The notes below the pieces were generated by a model. It was not told where the DNA came from. It worked only from the letters and a program-made list of their open reading frames with translations, and ran no database searches. This document shows positions 5,589-37,017 of a DNA stretch of 37,017 bases, one piece after another; position 1 is the stretch's first letter, and the number at the start of each line of letters is the position of its first letter. The DNA lies in IMG/VR virus record IMGVR_UViG_3300045988_143004. The stretch is one strand, 5' to 3'. The DNA comes from a virus. Position numbers and translations under genes: made by a program.

Positions 5589-6120
5589 CTACTTCACCTC
5601 GCTTTCTAAATCATTCTGCATATTATCTAATAGTAATGCACTTGTTTGTGTTGTACTTAATAATGCTTCTATTGCTGTTATTCTATCTTCTAATGCTTTT
5701 ATTTTCTCTATATCGTTGTTTATATCTATGGATACATTTGTTATTGCTTGTAAATATTTTTCATAAATGTTTGCATCCTCGTCCGTATATTCTTTGTTGG
5801 ATTCGTACTCTGCGGAAGATGTTATTATTGTTTTTGTTATTAGATTTGTTGGGATTCTTTTTACTATTTTGTCTTCTTGCACTAAAAAACCGAACTACAC
5901 CAATCTGGTATCGGCCATTTGGTAAGTTCGGTAATACTGTTTTATTATCTACTATTTGTTGCTCATATACATCAAAATCATTTATGAATAACATTTTTTT
6001 AGCTAGGTTGTCCCACTCTTCGGAGAAATCAATGTCTATGTTATACAGGTCTATTGCTTTCGCATACGTATTTTCTGTTTCTACTATTTCTAAATAGTCT
6101 TTTTTTACTTTAAACTGCAT
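5589..6120 (-). pseudogene. Tail-fibre-associated protein split into two overlapping ORFs (5761-6120 and 5589-5882) by a 1-nt frame break
   Basis: ..RYQIGVVRF continues as (L)VQEDKIVKRIPTN.. if one base is removed from the A6 run at 5884-5889. Confidence 0.5.
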
Positions 6121-7637
6121 TATAACACCTCTTCTTCCGTTGTTTTTGTATATTCTAATGTTACATAACCATTAAACATACTCCTATCACCGTCAGTCTG
6201 TATTTCTATTGTTGTATTATCAACAGCCAATGCTGTATTGTAAAACATTTCTGTATTCTTGTATACTAGTGGCAAAGATTGCGTAAATTTTGTTTCATCA
6301 TTTCTTATTGCTATACCCTCTATTTTTGTAAAAATACTTATATTACTTATATTGTGTTGTACTTCTTTTTTGGTTGCATTAGGTAATGTTCCAAAATTTA
6401 TAACTTTTCTATATATTGTCTTGCCATCTATCCAGGTGCCTACTGCTTGTTCCTCCGTTGAATAAGTGCTGTTCCTTGTTATTTTTTCATTTAGTTCTTT
6501 CCCTTGTTTTGCGCTTAAAGCATCTGTTGCGCTTGTACTTTCTAAACTGTTTACTACTGTAGCAACTAATCCAGCACTTTGTTTTGCTTTTATTATGTAG
6601 GCCGCTACAAATGAAGGTTGAATGTTGTTATGTGGTTGTGAGCCTCCAGTTTTCCCTGCTAAATCATCTCCTGTGTAAAGATATTGATTTGCTGGAACAG
6701 ACCAACTGTATGCAGCTTTGCCTGAATTTCCACTGTTTCCTCCATCTAACGATTGCTTGTGGTTATGTTCTGGCATTTCTGCTACTGTTAATGTATGTGT
6801 CTTTTCCCCAAGTGTTTTTCCAATAGCATTAAAGTCAGTATCTTCTGCATCTAATCCAACAATAGTTCTTCCTTTAATGTTTGGAAGATTAAATGTTGTA
6901 CTTCCATCTCCTTCTCCAAAAGTAGTTCCAATTGCATTAAACAGTTCTGAATAATTTGTTCTGCTTATTGCACTTCCATCACAAATTAGCCAATTTTCAG
7001 GAGCAGTTGCTTTTGAATATGACATTATTGAACCAATTGGCAATGTATCTCCTGTTGCACTTCCTCCACCAACTGGATCTGCCCATTCAGTTTCGTTATC
7101 GAGATTAGATTTTTTAACTAGGACTTGTCCTGTTGTTCCTCCGGACGGGATTAATTTTTTTTTGTCATCGTTTGTAAAATCATTTGAACTTAGCCCTTTT
7201 CCTTCTTCTTTATCAACTTTTTTTTCTAATGCTTGTTTTGCTTTTAGCGATATGGGTTTGTTTAAATCTGACGTATTATCTACTTTATCTAATTCTATAT
7301 CACTTTTACTTAAAGTTATATTTATAACTTTATCTACAACTGGAATATCTTCTCCGTTTTTTTGTATTTTTTCGATTATATTGTGCTCTGCTTTTTCTTC
7401 TATATTATCTAATTTTTTTTTATCTTCTTTGCTCATAAATCCACTTAAACCAGCGGTTGCGTTCTTATGTACTAATTGCGTATTTTTAGTATGTGCATCA
7501 ATTTTATTGTCTAATTTGTCCCAGTTGTCATTTAGTGCTTTGCCTATATCAAATTCTTCCTCAGCATCTTTTTCTGGGTCCCATTTAAACAAATTTAATA
7601 GATTTGTAAAAACACTCATTTTTTTATCCTCCTTCAA
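6120..7637 (-). CDS. Tail fibre / receptor-binding protein with a phage tail-collar domain (505 aa)
   Basis: GSIMSYSKATAPENWLICDGSAISRTNYSELFNAIGTTFGEGDGSTTFNLPNIKGR ... GGSQPHNNIQPSFVAAYIIKA is the tail-collar signature. Confidence 0.8.
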   Translation of the reverse strand: MKEDKKMSVFTNLLNLFKWDPEKDAEEEFDIGKALNDNWDKLDNKIDAHTKNTQLVHKNATAGLSGFMSKEDKKKLDNIEEKAEHNIIEKIQKNGEDIPVVDKVINITLSKSDIELDKVDNTSDLNKPISLKAKQALEKKVDKEEGKGLSSNDFTNDDKKKLIPSGGTTGQVLVKKSNLDNETEWADPVGGGSATGDTLPIGSIMSYSKATAPENWLICDGSAISRTNYSELFNAIGTTFGEGDGSTTFNLPNIKGRTIVGLDAEDTDFNAIGKTLGEKTHTLTVAEMPEHNHKQSLDGGNSGNSGKAAYSWSVPANQYLYTGDDLAGKTGGSQPHNNIQPSFVAAYIIKAKQSAGLVATVVNSLESTSATDALSAKQGKELNEKITRNSTYSTEEQAVGTWIDGKTIYRKVINFGTLPNATKKEVQHNISNISIFTKIEGIAIRNDETKFTQSLPLVYKNTEMFYNTALAVDNTTIEIQTDGDRSMFNGYVTLEYTKTTEEEVL

Positions 7638-7639
7638 TT

Positions 7640-9730
7640 TCAGTATTGTATAAGTCCTTCGATTATTATTGTTGCATACATTGCACCTGTTTTTGTTGCT
7701 CCATCAATTCTGTCATTCACATTTTCTAAAGATGTTTCTATTTTTAATCTATTTATGCCTTCAATTAATTCATTCGAAATATCTAAAGATTCAATTTTTT
7801 CAGATGAATAGGATTCTTTAGATGGAACTTGTGCTGTAAAACCATTTTGCCCAAAAGCGTTATTAATTTCTTCATAATCATCATTGTCAACATTTTCCCA
7901 TACATCTCCTCCAAAGTTAGCTGCTAATAAACGGTTATTTATATTACTACATTTATATAATTTTACAGATCTTGCATATCCCCACGAATTTTTAACTTCT
8001 CCAGTTTCTAAATCTGTTATAGTCCAATAAACAGGTGTATGTGTTAAAATTACTTTTGCTTGTTTTATTTTTAAATTTTTAGGTATTGGTATATCTATAA
8101 TTATGCTTTTTTTTTCTAAATCTTCTTCTTCAAATTTATACTCAAATCCTACATTCCCACTTCCGGAATAAATATATGTGTTCATTAATCCGTCTTCGCC
8201 TAAAATTTGCGTATTACTACCCATTAAGATTCCTGTTTCGTCTATTGTTACAATTGCATTACCTTCACTATCAAGGACTTCTATTTTTCCATTAGAACCA
8301 TTTATTCCTCCAACTTTTAATGTTCCACCTTTTATTCTGTTAGCGGATAATGTTCCTGCTGTTATAAAATTTGCTACTATTTGTCCGTTCATGGTTATTG
8401 CTGTTTCATATGGTCCATTTATGCCTTTGCTCGAGTAAGCAAATCCATTTATATTCCAACGCCATAAGTGTTCTGCTTTATCAATGTCTAAATTATCGGA
8501 AATATACAATTCACCATCTTTTTTTATTACATATCCACCATTAAATTCTTTGATTAATTCAGTGGCTTTACTAACTGCTTCTTCATACACATTTGGAATT
8601 TCTTTAGTAACTATATCAGATATTTGTTTTTGTATAGGACCTTTCGTTTTATAGGTATTATCAAACTTGGTTTCGCCTTTTGCACTCCAGGTTTGTGAAA
8701 CTGCTCCAGTATACTCCCACGAAATTCCTCTTATGTAAGTTAAATAATTAATATTTTTCGTATCAGTTATATCTATCATATCTAATACATCCATAGATAT
8801 ATCAGGTATACTCGCTTTATACTCATAAGTTATGTATGTATACCCTTGCATTTTTATTAAGATTTTTTGTGCCACTTCATCAGTTATAAATGGATTCTTT
8901 TCACTTAGCTCTAATATATATCCATTATCCTCGCCTATTACATAATCTTTATTGTATTTTATTTTTTGAATATTAATATAACTTTCTGCTGGAACAAATT
9001 TATTATAGGCTCCTTTTTCAATTTTCTTTACAGGTTCATTGGCAAATGTCCTTATTTCACCTCTTCCTGATCTGTTTATTATATATATACCACAGGCACA
9101 TTCTGCAATGTATCCTAATATTTCTTTCCCAGTATATCCTTTTGGAACTTCATTTATTATCACATCTTCATTGTAAAAACTGCTTGAATTTGAATTGATT
9201 TTGAAATAATTGTGTACATCTTTATATAAATCTTTAATTGTAAATGGTGGTGTTAAACTACATTCATATTCTTCCTCTAAATATTTTGTTTTATCTTGTA
9301 ATTTTATTGTTATAGTTTCATTTTCATTTTTATTAATTTTAGTAGGATAAAATATCCCTTGTGGAATCCACAACGATGTAAGGTGCTTTATTTTAAGTTT
9401 ATTTATTTCTTTAATAGATGTTTTATTAATTTTTTTTACCGTATACAAATCATCCACAGATAGTTTTAATTCAATTTTAAATTCTTTATTTTCAAATTTT
9501 ATATTATCTAACTCATTTTCAAAATTTAGTAATGTTATATCGACTGTTGCTCCGTATACACCACCAATAGTAAATTTTTCACCATCATTTGTATTTAAAT
9601 CGTATTTTATACTTTTTATATCTTTATTTGTTAGAACTATATTATTTAATATAATTCTTGCTATAATTAATAGCTCTTCATTTTTTAATACCTCTTGATA
9701 ATAAGGATTTTTATTATACATATATATCAC
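7640..9730 (-). CDS. Tail tip / minor structural protein (Tal-like, prophage-tail family), 696 aa
   Basis: WRWNINGFAYSSKGINGPYETAITMNGQIVANFITAGTLSANRIKGGTL is typical of siphovirus tail-tip proteins; positioned after the tape measure and Dit. Confidence 0.6.
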   Translation of the reverse strand: MIYMYNKNPYYQEVLKNEELLIIARIILNNIVLTNKDIKSIKYDLNTNDGEKFTIGGVYGATVDITLLNFENELDNIKFENKEFKIELKLSVDDLYTVKKINKTSIKEINKLKIKHLTSLWIPQGIFYPTKINKNENETITIKLQDKTKYLEEEYECSLTPPFTIKDLYKDVHNYFKINSNSSSFYNEDVIINEVPKGYTGKEILGYIAECACGIYIINRSGRGEIRTFANEPVKKIEKGAYNKFVPAESYINIQKIKYNKDYVIGEDNGYILELSEKNPFITDEVAQKILIKMQGYTYITYEYKASIPDISMDVLDMIDITDTKNINYLTYIRGISWEYTGAVSQTWSAKGETKFDNTYKTKGPIQKQISDIVTKEIPNVYEEAVSKATELIKEFNGGYVIKKDGELYISDNLDIDKAEHLWRWNINGFAYSSKGINGPYETAITMNGQIVANFITAGTLSANRIKGGTLKVGGINGSNGKIEVLDSEGNAIVTIDETGILMGSNTQILGEDGLMNTYIYSGSGNVGFEYKFEEEDLEKKSIIIDIPIPKNLKIKQAKVILTHTPVYWTITDLETGEVKNSWGYARSVKLYKCSNINNRLLAANFGGDVWENVDNDDYEEINNAFGQNGFTAQVPSKESYSSEKIESLDISNELIEGINRLKIETSLENVNDRIDGATKTGAMYATIIIEGLIQY

Positions 9731-10096
9731 CTACTGTTCAACAAAATCAGCACTTAATCCTTCCCATACAAATGTTCCGTCATCTTCAACTACAAGAACT
9801 GGCGCTGTTCTATTACCTACATACATTGCTTTAGTTTCATATTTTCCTGTTTGTGGGTCTGGATAAGTAACTGAAAAAAAGACATCTTTAATAGATGTCA
9901 AAATTTTACTTATTTCGTCCCATTTTAAAGGACCCCACTCATTACTTATTGTTCTTTTTACAGCTACTCTATTTCTGTGCAATTTTGCATTTGCATCTGT
10001 ATCAGAATTGATATCCTGGTCAGCTATTACGACTTGACATTTTTTAGGTGCTGGAATTGCCACTCCGTTTACTTTTAATATTGTAATTCCTTCCAT
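9731..10096 (-). CDS. Small distal-tail-type protein (121 aa), assigned by position
   Basis: Lies immediately downstream of the tape measure. No motif recognised. Confidence 0.35.
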   Translation of the reverse strand: MEGITILKVNGVAIPAPKKCQVVIADQDINSDTDANAKLHRNRVAVKRTISNEWGPLKWDEISKILTSIKDVFFSVTYPDPQTGKYETKAMYVGNRTAPVLVVEDDGTFVWEGLSADFVEQ

Positions 10097-16066: not shown

Positions 16067-16273
16067 TTATTTTACTTTCTTTTCTAATTCAGCAACCTTT
16101 GCTGTTAGCTCTTCATTAGATTTTGTTAATTTTTTTAGTTCTTTTTCTAAATCTTTAGAATCTGCTTTTTTAGTAGCTCCTAATTTAGAAAATCCCATAG
16201 CTTCATATTGTAATAATTCTTCCTCTTCTATAGATAATATTGCATTATCTTTTTCTATTTTTATTTTAGCCAT
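16067..16273 (-). CDS. Small coiled-coil protein (68 aa), hypothetical
   Basis: ORF between the capsid and connector genes. Confidence 0.5.
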   Translation of the reverse strand: MAKIKIEKDNAILSIEEEELLQYEAMGFSKLGATKKADSKDLEKELKKLTKSNEELTAKVAELEKKVK

Positions 16274-28903: not shown

Positions 28904-29674
28904 TCACTCTCCTTTTAATCTATAATTGTTCTCAATCCCTCGAGCTTCTATTATTCTACCTTTACACATTTCTATAATTCTACTTCCTATAGCTTCATCA
29001 AAATCTAATAATCTATCTTGTATTAATTCAGAACTTAATATAATTGGTTTATTGTTTAGGTATCTATAATTTATTATTTCAAACATTATGTTTATATCAG
29101 ATTCAGTTGTTTTACCTTTTGCAAAATCATCTATTAGCAATACTCTAGCTGTTTTGTATTGATTTAATAGTTTGTTATATTGAATATCATCTGTTATTAC
29201 TTGTTTTATTTTCGTTACAGCCTCGCGGTATGGCATATATAGTACTCCTATATTTTTAGTCATTAGATTATTTGCTATTGCTATGCTTAAATGTGTTTTT
29301 CCACTTCCACAATTACCTAAAAATGCTATACTATTATTTCGCTCTTTTTCGATTTCTTCAAAACTCTTTACATAGCTTACAGCTATATTTTTGGCTTCTT
29401 CTTGAAATTTAGTAATTGTTTTAAATTCTCTAAAGCCTATTTTTTGGAATTGTTCTGCTATTCCAGAATGTTCTAATATTCTTTTGTATCTCTTTCTCTC
29501 TGCACATTCACATGCCCTTGCTGTTTGTGTTTCTATATCAAAAATCATTTCTGTATCTTTGCATTTAGCACATTCATATAAGTCCTGTATCATCGATTTT
29601 TCTTTCTGACTTTGCAAGGTTTGCTGCAAGATTGATGCTTGAATATTTGCTATTATTTGCTTTATCTGTTCCAT
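28904..29674 (-). CDS. DnaC/IstB-like AAA+ helicase loader (up to 256 aa; the start may be the internal Met at 29593)
   Basis: Walker A GNCGSGKTHLS and Walker B VLLIDDF. The N-terminal CAKCKD..ACEC may form a zinc site. As called, it overlaps the upstream ORF by 101 nt. Confidence 0.8.
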   Translation of the reverse strand: MEQIKQIIANIQASILQQTLQSQKEKSMIQDLYECAKCKDTEMIFDIETQTARACECAERKRYKRILEHSGIAEQFQKIGFREFKTITKFQEEAKNIAVSYVKSFEEIEKERNNSIAFLGNCGSGKTHLSIAIANNLMTKNIGVLYMPYREAVTKIKQVITDDIQYNKLLNQYKTARVLLIDDFAKGKTTESDINIMFEIINYRYLNNKPIILSSELIQDRLLDFDEAIGSRIIEMCKGRIIEARGIENNYRLKGE

Positions 29675-30387
29675 TAGTTCCTCCTTCTTTAGTTTTTATA
29701 GAATTATATTTTCCTTCTAGTATTGCAGTTGCTTTATCAATCCTCATTACAAAATCAAAATCTGCTTTCCAGCCTCTGTCATTATTACCTGTTAAAAAAC
29801 TAGAGTTATTTGCTATATTACATATTTGCTTAAATTGTTCCTCTGTAAAGTCTTTAAGGAATTTATCTATAGCTTTATTTCTTGTATCAGTTAATTTTTT
29901 TATTTGAGGAAGATTTGTACATGTGGAGTTATAAATTTCGACTATCACATTTCTTTTTTCTTCTATTTCTTTTCTATTATCTTCTTTTCTATTATCTTCT
30001 TTTCTATTAGGCGGTAGTACTACCGTAGTGTTACCGTAGTAGTTCTATACCTTTATCATCAATATGTGGGAATGTTGATTTTGTAGGCTTGTTAATGGTT
30101 TGATGTTTTAGAAAATTAGGGAGATTGTAGTAGGTCTGTCCATCATGTTTAAACAAAACTACTATATTTAATCCGCCTAAGTGGGAAAGCCATTTTTCTA
30201 AATCGGAAGCTCGGAAGTCGTCATATGGAAATATCAAAGACTTTAATAGCTTCGGATTTGCTCTGCCATATCCTTCATCATCTGCGTTACTAATTAAGCC
30301 CATAAATAACATTCTCTCTTGTATTGTACATTCTCCTAGTTTTTCGTCGGTCCAAAAATTAGGGTCAATCATTCTTTTTCTAGCCAC
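29574..30387 (-). pseudogene. Replisome organiser split into an N-terminal winged-helix half (30031-30387) and a Phg_2220_C-type C-terminal half (29574-30044, other frame)
   Basis: N half: MIDPNFWTDEKL..MLFMGLISNADDEGYGR. C half: LPQIKKLTDTRNKAIDKF...SSFLTGNNDRGWKADFDFVMRIDKATAILEGKY. The frames overlap only at 30031-30044. Confidence 0.55.
29966..30043. repeat. Putative replication origin inside the organiser gene: 3 tandem 15-bp repeats, a 12-bp palindrome and two 9-bp direct repeats
   Basis: (C/T)TTCTTTTCTATTA(T/G) x3 at 29966-30010; GGTAGTACTACC at 30013-30024; TACCGTAGT at 30021-30029 and 30032-30040 (11-bp phase). Confidence 0.5.
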
Positions 30388-32498: not shown

Positions 32499-32756
32499 TT
32501 AAACACCTCCTAACAATCTTTTCATTTGTCTTTGCTCTGCTTGTACTTCCTGTAATGTCTTGCCTTTACTGTCTATGTTAAATATCACATTCACATTTCT
32601 TTGTGCCTTATGTACTTTCTTTATTTTCTTTGCTTTGTGTGCTTTCTTATAGCTTATTTCTGCAAATTTGTATGCTATGTATAACAATGCTATAGCTATT
32701 ACTGCACTTCCTAATATTAATGTTCCTAAAACTTGTTTTGCCTCTGCTAAACTCAT
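32499..32756 (-). CDS. Membrane-anchored hypothetical protein (85 aa)
   Basis: TM segment LGTLILGSAVIAIALLYIAY followed by a basic stretch. Confidence 0.5.
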   Translation of the reverse strand: MSLAEAKQVLGTLILGSAVIAIALLYIAYKFAEISYKKAHKAKKIKKVHKAQRNVNVIFNIDSKGKTLQEVQAEQRQMKRLLGGV

Positions 32757-32824
32757 ATTTTTTTCATCTCCTTTACATTTATTTTTTTTATTTATATAAT
32801 TACCTCGGATTGGAGGTGATTATA

Positions 32825-33031
32825 TTGTCAAATCAATGTCCTTATTGTGGAAGTTTACATTTCGGAAAAATTGAAACCGGTTCTCCTAATGTTAAATATG
32901 TATTAACTCAAGTTGATTTATCTTCAAATGCATTTTTAGCAACATCAGGATTGCCTGTAGATGCTTACGGTTGTTCCGATTGTAAAAAAATAATACTTTC
33001 TAGTGATAGCCTAAATTTCCATCAGAAATAA
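32825..33031 (+). CDS. Zinc-ribbon protein (68 aa, TTG start) on the strand opposite to the early operon
   Basis: GGAGGTGA lies 5 nt before the TTG at 32825. Contains CPYCGS ... CSDCKK. The N-terminal part of track ORF 32720-33031 is low-complexity. Confidence 0.45.
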   Translation: MSNQCPYCGSLHFGKIETGSPNVKYVLTQVDLSSNAFLATSGLPVDAYGCSDCKKIILSSDSLNFHQK

Positions 33032-33125
33032 TATTGGCTGTTATTTTTACATCAGTTGTTCCAGCAACTGGTGTTTTATTATTTAATAATTCTTTTAGCT
33101 CTTCTACCGTGCATTTTATTTCCAT
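33000..33125 (-). CDS. Possible 41-aa ORF (MEIKCTVEELKELLNNKTPVAGTTDVKITANIISDGNLGYH)
   Basis: GAAGGTGAG RBS. It overlaps the 3' end of the plus-strand zinc-ribbon ORF by 32 nt. Confidence 0.25.
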   Translation of the reverse strand: MEIKCTVEELKELLNNKTPVAGTTDVKITANIISDGNLGYH

Positions 33126-33213
33126 CTTCTCACCTTCTTTCGTTTTTTTTCTTAATTCTTTCGTGCAAATTTACGTGAATTTTTTTAGAATTAAATTTTT
33201 GAATTAAACATCC

Positions 33214-33417
33214 TTATCTGTATATTTGCTTTAATATTTCATAAAACTGATCTTTATCAGCTCTCATCGATTTTTCACCTATTTTTATTAGAACACCTTG
33301 CATTTCTTGCCTTTTAAATATTCTATATATTTGCATTGTTGTTGTACTTAGCTCTTCTGCTAATTCTTTAGCAGTTACATACTTTGTTCTTTTTTTGCTT
33401 AACATATTTGTAGCCAT
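33214..33417 (-). CDS. Excisionase-family (HTH_17 / MerR-like) DNA-binding protein (67 aa)
   Basis: YVTAKELAEELSTTTMQIYRIFKRQEMQGVLIKIGEKSMRADKDQFYEIL fits the Xis-type HTH pattern. Confidence 0.55.
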   Translation of the reverse strand: MATNMLSKKRTKYVTAKELAEELSTTTMQIYRIFKRQEMQGVLIKIGEKSMRADKDQFYEILKQIYR

Positions 33418-33449
33418 TTAAATCACCTCATTTTTCCTCACTTATTTTT

Positions 33450-33462
33450 TCACATTTTGTGA
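33450..33462. promoter_or_regulatory. Operator O1 (TCACATTTTGTGA), distal copy between cro-like and xis-like genes
   Basis: Perfect TCACA-N3-TGTGA palindrome, identical to O2 and O3. Confidence 0.6.
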
Positions 33463-33467
33463 TTTTA

Positions 33468-33653
33468 TTAATTAAAAAAAATATTTGTATCGAATTGTGG
33501 GTATGCTTTTTTTAATTTAGTTATAAATCCTCTGCTAGGTTTCCTTACACCATATTCAATTTTCTCGTATAGAGACTTTGAAACTCTTATACTTGTTGAA
33601 AATTCTGTGATTGTAAGGCCTAATGAAAGTCTAAATTCTTTTAACTGTTCCAC
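33468..33653 (-). CDS. Cro-like XRE HTH repressor (61 aa, GTG start)
   Basis: LGLTITEFSTSIRVSKSLYEKIEYGVRKPS is an HTH. It is divergent from the cI-like gene. Confidence 0.7.
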   Translation of the reverse strand: MEQLKEFRLSLGLTITEFSTSIRVSKSLYEKIEYGVRKPSRGFITKLKKAYPQFDTNIFFN

Positions 33654-33668
33654 TTTCTCACACCTCCT

Positions 33669-33783
33669 TCACATTTTGTGATTTTATTTTATTTCACATT
33701 TTGTGATTTGTCAATACCTTTTTTTTATTTTTTTTATATTTTTTCACATTTTGTGTTTTATGTTTACTTTTCACATTTTGTGT
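33669..33783. promoter_or_regulatory. Genetic switch region: operators O2 33669-33681, O3 33694-33706, O4 33744-33756, O5 33771-33783, plus divergent promoters
   Basis: The leftward promoter TTGACA-17-TAAAAT (33686-33714) has O3 in its spacer and O2 at +1. The rightward promoter TTTACT-17-TATACT (33763-33791) has O5 in its spacer. O4 and O5 are half-degenerate (TCACATTTTGTGT). Confidence 0.7.
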
Positions 33784-33813
33784 GGTATACTTTATTTGTT
33801 AGGAGGTGTTTTA

Positions 33814-34149
33814 ATGATTGGTAATAGAATAAAAATATTAAGAGAAGAACTTGGTTTAAAACAAGAGGAGCTTGCAAAAAAATTAAATATTTCTCCTAGT
33901 AGCATTGGAATGTATGAAACTAACAAAAGAGAGCCTAATAACGAAATAACTATAAAATTAGCCGATTTTTTCGGAGTATCTACTGATTATTTGCTAGGAA
34001 AATCTGACATAAGAAAATCTGATGCAGAAATAAAAAAAGAATTTGATTTTGCATACCACAAAGACGCAGAAGGCTTAACAGATGAAGAAATTGCTGATGC
34101 AATAAGATTCTATAAGCAAATAAAATACGGAAAAAAAGACAATAAATAA
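33814..34149 (+). CDS. CI-like XRE-family repressor (111 aa from ATG 33814)
   Basis: AGGAGG RBS. IGNRIKILREELGLKQEELAKKLNISPSSIGMYETNKREP is an HTH_3. The track ORF start at 33703 is an F/I-rich read-through of the operator region. Confidence 0.8.
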   Translation: MIGNRIKILREELGLKQEELAKKLNISPSSIGMYETNKREPNNEITIKLADFFGVSTDYLLGKSDIRKSDAEIKKEFDFAYHKDAEGLTDEEIADAIRFYKQIKYGKKDNK

Positions 34150-34173
34150 TTAAAAATACAAAGGAGATTAATA

Positions 34174-34971
34174 ATGAACGATAATAATTTACCTCAAATG
34201 GACATAAATGTTGATTTCACAAAAACAGTAGAAGACGCATATACTGATGGAATTTCTAAACCATTAAAAAGTAGTAGTAAAATTTTTACAACATTAATGG
34301 ACTTTTTCCATAATACTGTCTTATACCCTATGCAAAAATATAATTTATATGCAAATAATAAATTAGAAAATTATGCTATTGAATTACAAAATAAAGTTAA
34401 AACAATCCCTGCAGAGAATTTAGTAAGTCCAAGGGTTAATATTTTGGGACCTACCATTGATGGATTGAAATATAATTTAGATGAAGAATATATAAAAGAA
34501 ATGTTTACTAATATTTTAATGTCTGATATGGATGATAGAACACAAAATAAAGTTCTCCCTTCATATATTGAAATAGTTAAACAACTAAGCAAAGATGATG
34601 CTAAATTTATAACTAACTTAAAGTCTAATAATTTAATAGATGAATTACCAATAATTAAATTGAAATTAGTAAGTAACGAGAATAGTTCTTTTAATTATAT
34701 AAGTCCTAGTTTTATTTGCTTATCTGATGGAAACTACCTAGAAATTCCACAAATAGTACTAGACAATCTTACTAGATTGCAAATACTAGAAGTTGACTAC
34801 GAGACTTTTTTTCAAAATGCAACAAGTTATAATAAATCATTTGAAAATTTAAAAAAGATTTCTAAGTTCATTCAATATTCAAATAAACCAAATAAACACA
34901 TAGAGCCAAAAAAAGGATTATTATTATTTACAAGTTTTGGTAAAAATTTTATTGATGTAAGTCTTTCTTAA
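34174..34971 (+). CDS. Abi-alpha (DUF4393)-like abortive-infection family protein (265 aa)
   Basis: LDEEYIKEMFTNILMSDMDDRTQNKVLPSYIEIVKQLSKDDAKFITNL matches the ..mFa.LLa.smD......hPsFveIikqLspdEAkiL core. It appears co-transcribed with the repressor. Confidence 0.6.
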   Translation: MNDNNLPQMDINVDFTKTVEDAYTDGISKPLKSSSKIFTTLMDFFHNTVLYPMQKYNLYANNKLENYAIELQNKVKTIPAENLVSPRVNILGPTIDGLKYNLDEEYIKEMFTNILMSDMDDRTQNKVLPSYIEIVKQLSKDDAKFITNLKSNNLIDELPIIKLKLVSNENSSFNYISPSFICLSDGNYLEIPQIVLDNLTRLQILEVDYETFFQNATSYNKSFENLKKISKFIQYSNKPNKHIEPKKGLLLFTSFGKNFIDVSLS

Positions 34972-35146
34972 TTTTGTCAATATCTTGTTTTATTTTAGAT
35001 ATTTCATCAAAAGACTTTCCAATATAATCGCATTGTGTTTCAAAACCTTTTAAGTTTATATCATTTAACTTAATTATTTGATAGCAAGTAATTTTATAAG
35101 TTATGTAGCAACACAACAATATAATTAAAATATAAATTAAAAACAT
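34949..35146 (-). CDS. Small membrane protein (65 aa from ATG 35146)
   Basis: AGAGGTGA RBS. TM segment MFLIYILIILLCCYITY followed by a coiled C-terminus. Confidence 0.45.
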   Translation of the reverse strand: MFLIYILIILLCCYITYKITCYQIIKLNDINLKGFETQCDYIGKSFDEISKIKQDIDKIKKDLHQ

Positions 35147-35213
35147 TACAATCACCTCTACGTGAATTATATCATAATTTCTATAAAAACACATTAAATT
35201 TGGAGGAAAATAT

Positions 35214-35621
35214 ATGGAATTAAATAAATTGTATGACATAGTAAAAAGAGAAAATATATCTATAGAAGACTTCAAAATGAAAAATAAAGCAATTATAGAA
35301 CAAATAGATAAAGAATATTATATTGGATTAAATTATTCGAAAATAGAAAGCATTACAGAAGAGAAAGAACTTCTAGCAGAGGAACTAGGACATTACTATT
35401 GTAATGCTTTTTATAATAGCTCTTCTTCCCTGTCTTCAATTGCACAAAAAGAATATAGAGCTAATAAATGGAAATGTACTGTATTAGTTTCTGTAAACGA
35501 TTTAAAAGAAGCTTTTAAAAAGGGATTAAGAAATATATATGAAATCGCTGATTATCTAAGCTTATCTGAGGATACAGTTGCATTTGCTTATAATTATTAC
35601 AAAGAAAATTCTTATTTTTAG
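35214..35621 (+). CDS. ImmA/IrrE-like protein with a degenerate metal motif (EELGH instead of HEXXH), 135 aa
   Basis: ..YIGLNYSKIESITEEKELLAEELGHYYCNAFY has the layout of short phage ImmA/IrrE proteins, but the first His is Glu. Confidence 0.45.
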   Translation: MELNKLYDIVKRENISIEDFKMKNKAIIEQIDKEYYIGLNYSKIESITEEKELLAEELGHYYCNAFYNSSSSLSSIAQKEYRANKWKCTVLVSVNDLKEAFKKGLRNIYEIADYLSLSEDTVAFAYNYYKENSYF

Positions 35622-35631
35622 GAGGTAACTT

Positions 35632-36708
35632 ATGGCTTTTACTTATACAAAAAGATCTGATGGCAGACTAATGAAAAGAGTTTCCGTTAATGGAAAATTA
35701 AAAACACTTTATTCCGACAATGTTAAGGATTTAGAAAAACAATATATTGAATATAAACACTTAGATAATAAAGGTATTGAACTTGAAAACGAAACAATTA
35801 CAGTTTCAACATGGGCAGACGAATATTTAAAAACATATAAGAAAAATGTAACAAAGGGTACATATAAAATGTATTCTGATATTATCAGATTGTACATTAA
35901 ACCTAATATAGGAAATATTAAATTAAAAAAATTAAAGCAAAGTGACATCGTCAATTTAGTTAATACACTTGAAGAAAAAAAATTGACAAAAACAATAACA
36001 GATACATTAATACTTATAAAATCTATGTTAAATAAAGCTGTGGAAAATGATTACATATATAAAAATGTTGCTATTGGGATTACACCCCAAAAGCGAGCAA
36101 AAACAGAAAAAGTTCCATTAACAATCGAAACTATAGATAAAATAAAAGAACTTGCTAAAACCAATGATAATGCTTTTATGGTTTTATTTCTAATATATAC
36201 TGGTCTTCGTAGAGGAGAAATTATACCATTAAAATATAAAGATATTGACATCACTAATAAAATTATTAATGTCAACAAAGCTGTTTATATTGCTACAAAT
36301 CAACCAGAGATTAAAGATACTAAAAATCACGAAAATAGAAAAGTTCCGATTTTTAATATTATATATGGTAGACTTGCAGAAATGAAGGAAACCAATAAGG
36401 ATGATAATTATGTATTCCCTAGTAAGCATAATAAAATTATGAGTCAAACTTCAATTAGAAGAAAATTAGATAATGTTTTACACTTATTAAACAAAGACTT
36501 AGAAAAGGAAGAAGATAAAATTACATTTACTTTACACCAACTTCGTCATACTTTTGCTTGCATTCTGTATAAAGCTGGAATTGATGCCAAGCAAGCACAA
36601 CTTTGGACTGGACATAAAGATATTCGAGTATTGTTAGATATATATACACATTTAGATTCGCAAGACAACCAACAGGCTGTTGAAAAAGTGAATCAATTTT
36701 TAGGTTAA
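35632..36708 (+). CDS. int: Tyrosine integrase (358 aa)
   Basis: TGLRRGEI (Arg I), HQLRHTF (H-x-x-R) and GHKDIRVLLDIYTHL (His/Tyr nucleophile box). Confidence 0.9.
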   Translation: MAFTYTKRSDGRLMKRVSVNGKLKTLYSDNVKDLEKQYIEYKHLDNKGIELENETITVSTWADEYLKTYKKNVTKGTYKMYSDIIRLYIKPNIGNIKLKKLKQSDIVNLVNTLEEKKLTKTITDTLILIKSMLNKAVENDYIYKNVAIGITPQKRAKTEKVPLTIETIDKIKELAKTNDNAFMVLFLIYTGLRRGEIIPLKYKDIDITNKIINVNKAVYIATNQPEIKDTKNHENRKVPIFNIIYGRLAEMKETNKDDNYVFPSKHNKIMSQTSIRRKLDNVLHLLNKDLEKEEDKITFTLHQLRHTFACILYKAGIDAKQAQLWTGHKDIRVLLDIYTHLDSQDNQQAVEKVNQFLG

Positions 36709-36710
36709 AT

Positions 36711-36733
36711 TTGACACACCTATTTGACACACT
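36711..36733 (+). repeat. Copy A of the 23-bp motif TTGACACACcTATTTGACACACT; candidate integrase arm-type site pair
   Basis: Matches 22/23 with 36935-36957, in direct orientation. Begins 3 nt after the int stop. Confidence 0.8.
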
Positions 36734-36789
36734 AAATATGTTAAAATTGTTATATATGTTATATAATTTAATAATAATTTTTAAGTATA

Positions 36790-36822
36790 AAAACCGCCAA
36801 ATGTATTAAAATGGCGGTTTTT
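36790..36822. terminator. Bidirectional rho-independent terminator
   Basis: AAAACCGCCA-aatgtattaaaa-TGGCGGTTTTT, with an A-run before and a T-run after. Confidence 0.75.
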
Positions 36823-36826
36823 GTTT

Positions 36827-36876
36827 TGGAGCTGCTGGGGAGAATCGAACTCCCGACCTACAGGTTACGAATCTGT
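36827..36876 (-). other. 3' fragment (anticodon arm to CCA) of a tRNA-Thr(CGU)-like gene; candidate attP core
   Basis: The minus strand reads ACAGA-TTCGTAA-CCTGT AGGTC GGGAG-TTCGATT-CTCCC CAGCAGC T CCA. No D arm or 5' acceptor strand (GCTGCTG) lies upstream. Confidence 0.7.
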
Positions 36877-36898
36877 TTTCCGTAGCTCCTATATTACG

Positions 36899-37017
36899 TT
36901 ATTTTATTATTTCTTTGTGTGTTCATGTGTCTTCTTGACACACTTATTTGACACACTTTCTTTTCAAAAATGTTTCTATACTTTCTTCTATATTATTAAC
37001 ATTATTTGTTTTTGCAA
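36899..37017. repeat. Right arm of the perfect 119-bp terminal inverted repeat (contains motif copy B at 36935-36957)
   Basis: Exact reverse complement of 1-119. Confidence 0.95.

Follow-up and report, generated by a model that had tools for sequence, protein, structure and literature searches.

Background

Contig ends of length k in inverted form are known from plastid assemblies with their LSC/IR/SSC layout. Contigs built by MEGAHIT end in common sequences of length maxK at break points, and 119 belongs to the usual k-list of this assembler (PMC10914622). Among the contigs with inverted terminal repeats (ITRs) in IMG/VR, only 33% look complete according to CheckV (PMC8116208). Inverted copies of neighboring sequence have been described both in mutagenesis and in amplified DNA: template switching turns short imperfect inverted repeats into perfect palindromes (PMC7202029, PMC8604942, PMC7954356), and more than 85% of the chimeras formed in multiple displacement amplification were inverted with an intervening deletion (Lasken & Stockwell 2007), such chimeras priming at 2–21 nt of complementarity (PMC1855051).

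The window analyzed here, i.e., the whole 37,017-nt stretch of IMG/VR record IMGVR_UViG_3300045988_143004, ends in a perfect inverted repeat of 119 nt. With a probability of about three in four, it is a complete circular temperate-phage genome in attP form, broken open at a fold-back junction during de Bruijn assembly (MEGAHIT) with k=119.

The terminal inverted repeat

Positions 1–119 of the window are the exact reverse complement of positions 36899–37017, with 100% complementarity over 119 nt. Identity halts at 120/36898, base 120 being A and the complement of base 36898 being C, which confirmed the perfect inverted ends with abrupt inner edges described in an earlier note on this DNA. The two copies form the sole long inverted pair in the window (the runner-up is 46 nt at 74%), and an exact terminal inverted repeat of 119 nt cannot be explained by chance. 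The features of both ends are as follows, with a and a' denoting the inner 13 nt, and b and b' the remainder, of the right and left copies, respectively.

1–106, + strand: non-native inverted copy of the attP P' arm (b'), reverse complement of 36912–37017
3–74, + strand: displaced 3' part of a 49-aa ORF (the final 23 codons and the stop codon), lying on the strand opposite to the 5' part
107–119, + strand: native 13-nt AATAATAAAATAA (a'), inner edge of the repeat, in inverted microhomology with 36899–36911; sister contigs match at 100% from 107
107–174, − strand: 5' part of the conserved 49-aa ORF, which in the window enters the inverted copy and stops after 35 aa (70–174)
35632–36708, + strand: tyrosine integrase gene (int)
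36711–36732, + strand: paired TTGACACAC repeats of the P arm (starts 36711 and 36724), directly past the int stop codon
36827–36877, − strand: 3' fragment of tRNA-Thr(CGU), the att core; the tRNA-Thr is complete in lysogen contig L042
36899–37017, + strand: native copy, attP P' arm (a+b); elsewhere it runs into TCTTATAT and then window position 107
36935–36956, + strand: paired TTGACACAC repeats of the P' arm (starts 36935 and 36948), putative integrase arm-type sites; mirrored copy at 62–83
37012–37017, no strand: TTGCAA, a self-complementary hexamer at both extreme ends, possible center of a 232-bp palindrome

The native junction in other assemblies

Exact-protein look-ups retrieved the window phage from many independent assemblies, and 24 loci (about 20 distinct contigs) were fetched. 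The sources were MEGAHIT assemblies (k99, k109, k119, and k141), metaSPAdes scaffolds of up to 225 kb, Logan k31 contigs, and JGI. At all 24 loci, the sequence ending in TTGCAA (37017) was followed by the 8-nt TCTTATAT and then by the window from position 107 onward, the closest ones being 100% identical; the layout was the same in the distant relatives L003, L007, and L030. A single P' arm copy was joined to 107 in about 20 contigs, including lysogens in host scaffolds of more than 200 kb. These junctions indicate that the window is native from 107 onward and at 36899–37017, and that 1–106 is the odd piece. The native order is int, P arm, tRNA-Thr core, 21 nt, P' arm (36899–37017), TCTTATAT, and position 107 onward.

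The left junction of the window was present at none of the 24 loci, and the palindrome center (TTTGTTTTTGCAAAAACAAA) was absent from all of them. None of the other records of this phage ended in the repeat; they were a circle or a prophage instead. Neither the repeat nor the left junction nor the palindrome center was found by exact-pattern scans of the viral and genome contig collections. The scans of the JGI metagenome contigs were also empty, and a control pattern for the native attP was missing there as well, making this last result uninformative.

In its native form, the 49-aa ORF starts at 174 on the minus strand and reaches the P' arm by way of a' and TCTTATAT; 89 blocks of the public collection list its product (MEEEMLKEICKKYCKKERFILLLYKIAKTNNVNNIEESIETFLKRKCVK). 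The 35-aa product of 70–174 (−) occurs in no record of this collection, and the ORF is an artefact of the inverted left end. The left copy had been described earlier as containing the 3' half of a small ORF plus 66 nt downstream; the ORF portion was found as described (23 codons plus stop, 3–74), but the downstream stretch measures 45 nt.

A 114-nt segment between the 13-nt inverted repeats might instead act as a switch that flips in vivo, with one orientation caught at each contig end. The segment holds the P' arm sites and the 3' half of the 49-aa ORF, a flip would swap the C-terminus of this ORF, and the left end of the window does have the inverted and the right end the native orientation. 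However, neither the inverted orientation nor its partner junction x-a-ATATAAGA-TTGCAAAAAC (a = TTATTTTATTATT) was seen at any of the 24 loci, the truncated 35-aa product is likewise missing, the Logan k31 contigs pass unbroken through the attP site, and two of the four junctions would need to have been lost by chance. The 13-nt inverted repeat TTATTTTATTATT / AATAATAAAATAA, which is all that the two copies share natively, is AT-only and can be a chance pair, since exact inverted 13-mers within 300 nt occur in about four further cases in the window; it is not conserved in the more distant relatives L003 and L007. Unlike invertons of the Gin/Hin type or those with a tyrosine invertase, the window has neither conserved flanking repeats nor, in the scanned ORFs, a cognate invertase. 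We consider a switch of this kind very unlikely.

Attachment site and lysogens

In lysogen contig L042 (attR), int is followed by a complete tRNA-Thr(CGT). Identity to the window begins at 36826 in the attL contigs (L032–L034 and L037) and ends at 36877 in L042; the core is therefore the 51-nt 3' part of tRNA-Thr. The right repeat copy begins 21–22 nt past this core, so that both the truncated tRNA reported earlier and its distance from the repeat were borne out. Because the core is flanked on both sides by two direct TTGACACAC repeats, the right repeat copy is the P' arm of attP.

The TTGACACAC repeats are probably integrase arm-type sites. The region resembles a lambda-type attP in its arrangement, with int, a P arm carrying two direct TTGACACAC repeats, the 51-nt tRNA-Thr fragment, and a P' arm carrying two more, and also in that attL and attR were found in lysogens. 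It differs in that binding of the integrase to these repeats is a prediction.

Four loci inserted at tRNA-Phe (L003, L013, L014, and L030) have the P' arm, the TTGACACAC sites, and the left-end genes in common with the window. In the integrase comparison (window 35632–36708 versus L014:6001–7071), the protein of this related prophage at tRNA-Phe, which has the TTGACACAC motif too, was 64% identical to that of the window, and the first ~45 residues were nearly identical. Such near-identity would fit an arm-binding domain that reads the arm-type sites, and it looks as if the core specificity may have been exchanged and the arm-binding module retained in the tRNA-Phe relatives.

Phage identity, gene content, and host

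The window is a complete circular temperate tailed phage in attP form and is not linear-ended. Pfam and PHROG scans took in 40 ORFs, with the smallest ones left out. The right end codes for an HTH repressor, an Abi-alpha protein, an ImmA-like protease, and the tyrosine integrase. The head and tail genes comprise those for the small and large terminase, portal, MuF-ART, major head protein, and tail proteins; the replication genes comprise those for an O/DnaD-like initiator, a DnaC-like loader, and RusA, and a methyltransferase gene is also present.

The repeat is perfect and terminal, as genuine ITRs of a linear virion genome would be, and in simulation the contig was likewise obtained from a linear model carrying a 119-nt ITR. 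Several results run counter to this explanation. The length of the repeat is that of k; its sequence forms the attP arm of an integrase-bearing phage found both as a circle and as a prophage at tRNA-Thr; and the left copy disrupts a conserved ORF. Terminase, portal, the O/DnaD-like initiator, and the DnaC-like loader are present, and no protein-primed polymerase, terminal protein, protelomerase, or invertase was matched among the 40 ORFs scanned, in agreement with the earlier note. The window phage is in this respect unlike the linear phages of the phi29/PRD1 or N15 type, being without their end-replication genes in the scanned ORFs. Genuine linear termini are scarcely credible here. The earlier proposal of genuine termini or an invertible element was thus not supported on either count, the phage being integrative and circular, with no end-replication genes or invertase detected in the scanned ORFs and no inverted orientation seen.

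The predicted host, judged from relatives, is an uncultured human-gut Clostridium. Scanning the genome contigs with the HTH protein yielded only relatives of at most 58% identity, in uncultured Clostridium MAGs, and no isolate host. In the phage GenBank collection, the left 1.2 kb had no match. The nearest virus record (G001) has structural genes in common with the window, and both ends are absent from it.

The initiator is apparently split between 30031–30387 (−) and 29574–29948 (−), with the same two gene calls in the sister contig. The match of the former (118 aa) is limited to the first ~110 positions of the ~300-aa initiator profiles, and that of the latter (124 aa) is to the C-terminal third of such profiles (O-like/DnaD-like).

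The endolysin gene, at 4041–5081 (−), codes for a shortened C39-peptidase of 346 aa, and a separate 79-aa SH3 piece is encoded at 3736–3975 (−); in related prophages the endolysin proteins are intact (450–452 aa). Three other assemblies (two MEGAHIT and one metaSPAdes) code for an identical shortened endolysin and SH3 piece, and the frame breaks at homopolymer runs are therefore real in the lineage and not errors of the record. An origin of the record from a long-read assembly with homopolymer errors was rejected for the same reason.

The cargo beside attP (415–3500) differs among otherwise identical prophages (L032, L035, L036, and L039): a common HTH-Spo0E-like regulator is followed by SecB-like/200-aa genes, Fic, a PIN toxin, or a 357-aa gene. 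Owing to this variation, many assemblies break near the attP junction.

Repeat length and genome closure

Same-phage contigs of one ENA series bear names with the prefix k119_, by which MEGAHIT names contigs according to the final k. One sister contig, k119_200860 (37,101 nt), was 100% identical to the window over 3694–10081, 32632–37017, and 107–3738. Its ends map to 3694 and 3812, so that they overlap directly by 119 nt and the circle measures 36,982 nt; colinearity served to place the final 74 nt of this contig, and the overlap was computed rather than read directly. Closure of the sister as a circle with a 119-nt direct overlap indicates that 119 is the largest k of the assembler. A check of whether k equals 119, as suggested in the earlier note, was thus answered in the affirmative by the sister names and the 119-nt closure, the assembler and k of the window's own record being taken from these sisters and not from its metadata.

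After correction, the window measures 37017 − 106 + 8 = 36,919 nt, which is 63 nt short of the sister circle. The difference is one tandem-repeat unit in the ORF at 16067–16273, and since the gap amounts to this single unit, nothing else is missing from the window. This small head-module ORF, on the minus strand, shows copy-number polymorphism of a 63-nt (21-codon) tandem repeat (at 16076–16131 in the window). The window allele codes for 68 aa and that of k119_200860, G001, and others for 89 aa, and each occurs in many assemblies.

The closure also bears on a plastid-like layout, in which two long inverted repeats would surround an unassembled unique spacer and part of the genome would be missing. 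A longer-repeat model does reproduce the window in simulation; nevertheless, the corrected length equals that of the closed sister genome save for the 63-nt unit, and the single copy joined to 107 in about 20 contigs, lysogens in >200-kb host scaffolds among them, leaves little room for a second one. We regard this layout as highly improbable. Accordingly, the earlier suggestion that the record stops inside two inverted copies of a longer repeat was upheld as to the fixed length, which is the de Bruijn overlap indicated by the k119_ sisters, but not as to a native pair of longer repeats.

Graph simulation and the opening of the circle

An edge-centric unitig simulation was carried out at k=119. 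The native circle gave a loop, and a mixture of the native and the inverted segment gave a terminal inverted repeat of only 13 nt instead of 119, which speaks against the invertible switch. When 120–36898 was flanked by inverted copies of at least 119 nt, the resulting unitig was identical to the 37,017-nt window; the flanked models tried were a 232- or 238-bp palindrome, a longer repeat, and a linear ITR. These outcomes indicate that the length and the terminal position of the repeat come from the assembler.

In the reading that we prefer, a circular genome opened at a fold-back junction, the sequenced DNA would have held molecules in which the inverted P' arm abuts 107, joined at the 13-nt inverted microhomology, and the native junction would have been absent or pruned in the source sample. 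With two predecessors in the graph for the leading 119-mer of the P' arm, the unitig would then stop at the same node at both ends and show a perfect inverted repeat of exactly k. For this, the reads must hold b'-a'-120 and must lack TCTTATAT-a'-120, or have it pruned. The graph logic was demonstrated by the simulation, as were the native closure and the k value by the comparisons above. A considerable fraction of the library would then have been fold-back molecules, presumably at least ~20% at the site under the local-depth pruning defaults of MEGAHIT.

The repeat is like the maxK ends that MEGAHIT and metaSPAdes contigs share at branch points of the graph, described with COBRA for the joining of contigs, in that it has the length of the largest k, is perfect, terminal, and abrupt, and has the same node on both sides (PMC10914622). 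It is unlike them in that the phage has no native long inverted repeat, the inverted copy occurring in this record only, with 8 nt lost.

A pure software misjoin would require no fold-back DNA, the assembler itself having joined the reverse complement of the P' arm to 107. That the junction falls at a 13-nt inverted repeat and is absent from every other assembly would agree with such an error, and multi-k assemblers with local assembly steps do work with small words. However, 13 nt is below 21, the smallest k usual in MEGAHIT, and a k=119 unitig requires 120-mers that span b'-a'-120; moreover, the native circle simulates to a clean loop, and the sister sample closed the circle correctly at k119. 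A misjoin by software is therefore judged unlikely.

Origin of the fold-back

Within the preferred reading of a circular genome opened at a fold-back, the chances are roughly even that the fold-back is a real, sample-specific variant or a chimera of amplification or library preparation. It is possible, though on balance doubtful, that the dominant genotype in the sample really carries a perfect palindrome, made in vivo, in the P' arm of attP. Because the two ends overlap in TTGCAA, this palindrome would be 232 bp long. The palindrome next to attP proposed in the earlier note may thus apply to this one sample, with 232 bp instead of the 238 bp given there, but is not a property of the phage.

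The simplest origin of a real variant would be a pair of template switches, the first at the 13-nt repeat and the second at TTGCAA. The nascent strand would leave a', re-pair at the inverted 13-mer, copy the P' arm, and make a U-turn at the palindromic TTGCAA, and this double switch would skip TCTTATAT. The arrangement expected of template switching was found, with 1–106 being the reverse complement of 36912–37017, the 13-nt microhomology at the inner edge, and TTGCAA at the outer one. Self-complementary hexamers begin at only 2.0% of window positions; the terminal TTGCAA, with this chance rate, favors a palindrome centered there, although it is suggestive only. As in quasipalindrome mutation, the short spacer in the window is replaced by the exact reverse complement of its neighbor, and microhomology is found at both putative switches. 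In contrast to the typical case, the copied tract would be much longer, at least 106 nt, and its in vivo origin is putative.

The geometry of the fold-back would fit template-switch mutagenesis and the inverted chimeras of displacement amplification equally well. The difference from the latter is that a single chimera would have to dominate the locus in the library of the window. Since a random library chimera is far too rare to displace the native junction, an artefact would presuppose either a jackpot during amplification or poor effective coverage at k=119.

Implications for records and phage biology

As a genome terminus or a switch, the 119-nt repeat is not a real feature. Its length is the word size of the assembler, and the left copy consists of the attachment-site arm folded back in the wrong place; these are therefore not genome ends. 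Contigs with ITRs are flagged in databases as complete linear genomes, and the window record would be misread as an ITR phage; the 33% figure of CheckV fits the general unreliability of the ITR signal. The genome in the record is whole, with a fold-back end, and not truncated. Three defects lie at its ends: 8 nt are missing, 106 nt at the left are spurious or variant and inverted, and the small left-end ORF is made falsely short. For the curation of records, it is useful that the k-length inverted end marks here a single fold-back junction and not a native long repeat.

If the palindrome is true, it deletes TCTTATAT, adds a second, mirrored set of the integrase arm sites, and truncates the conserved 49-aa ORF, and a gut phage population would then harbor a long palindrome that is natural and close to fixation. 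Should the fold-back be real, it would provide a modest case of template-switch mutagenesis in a natural phage population.
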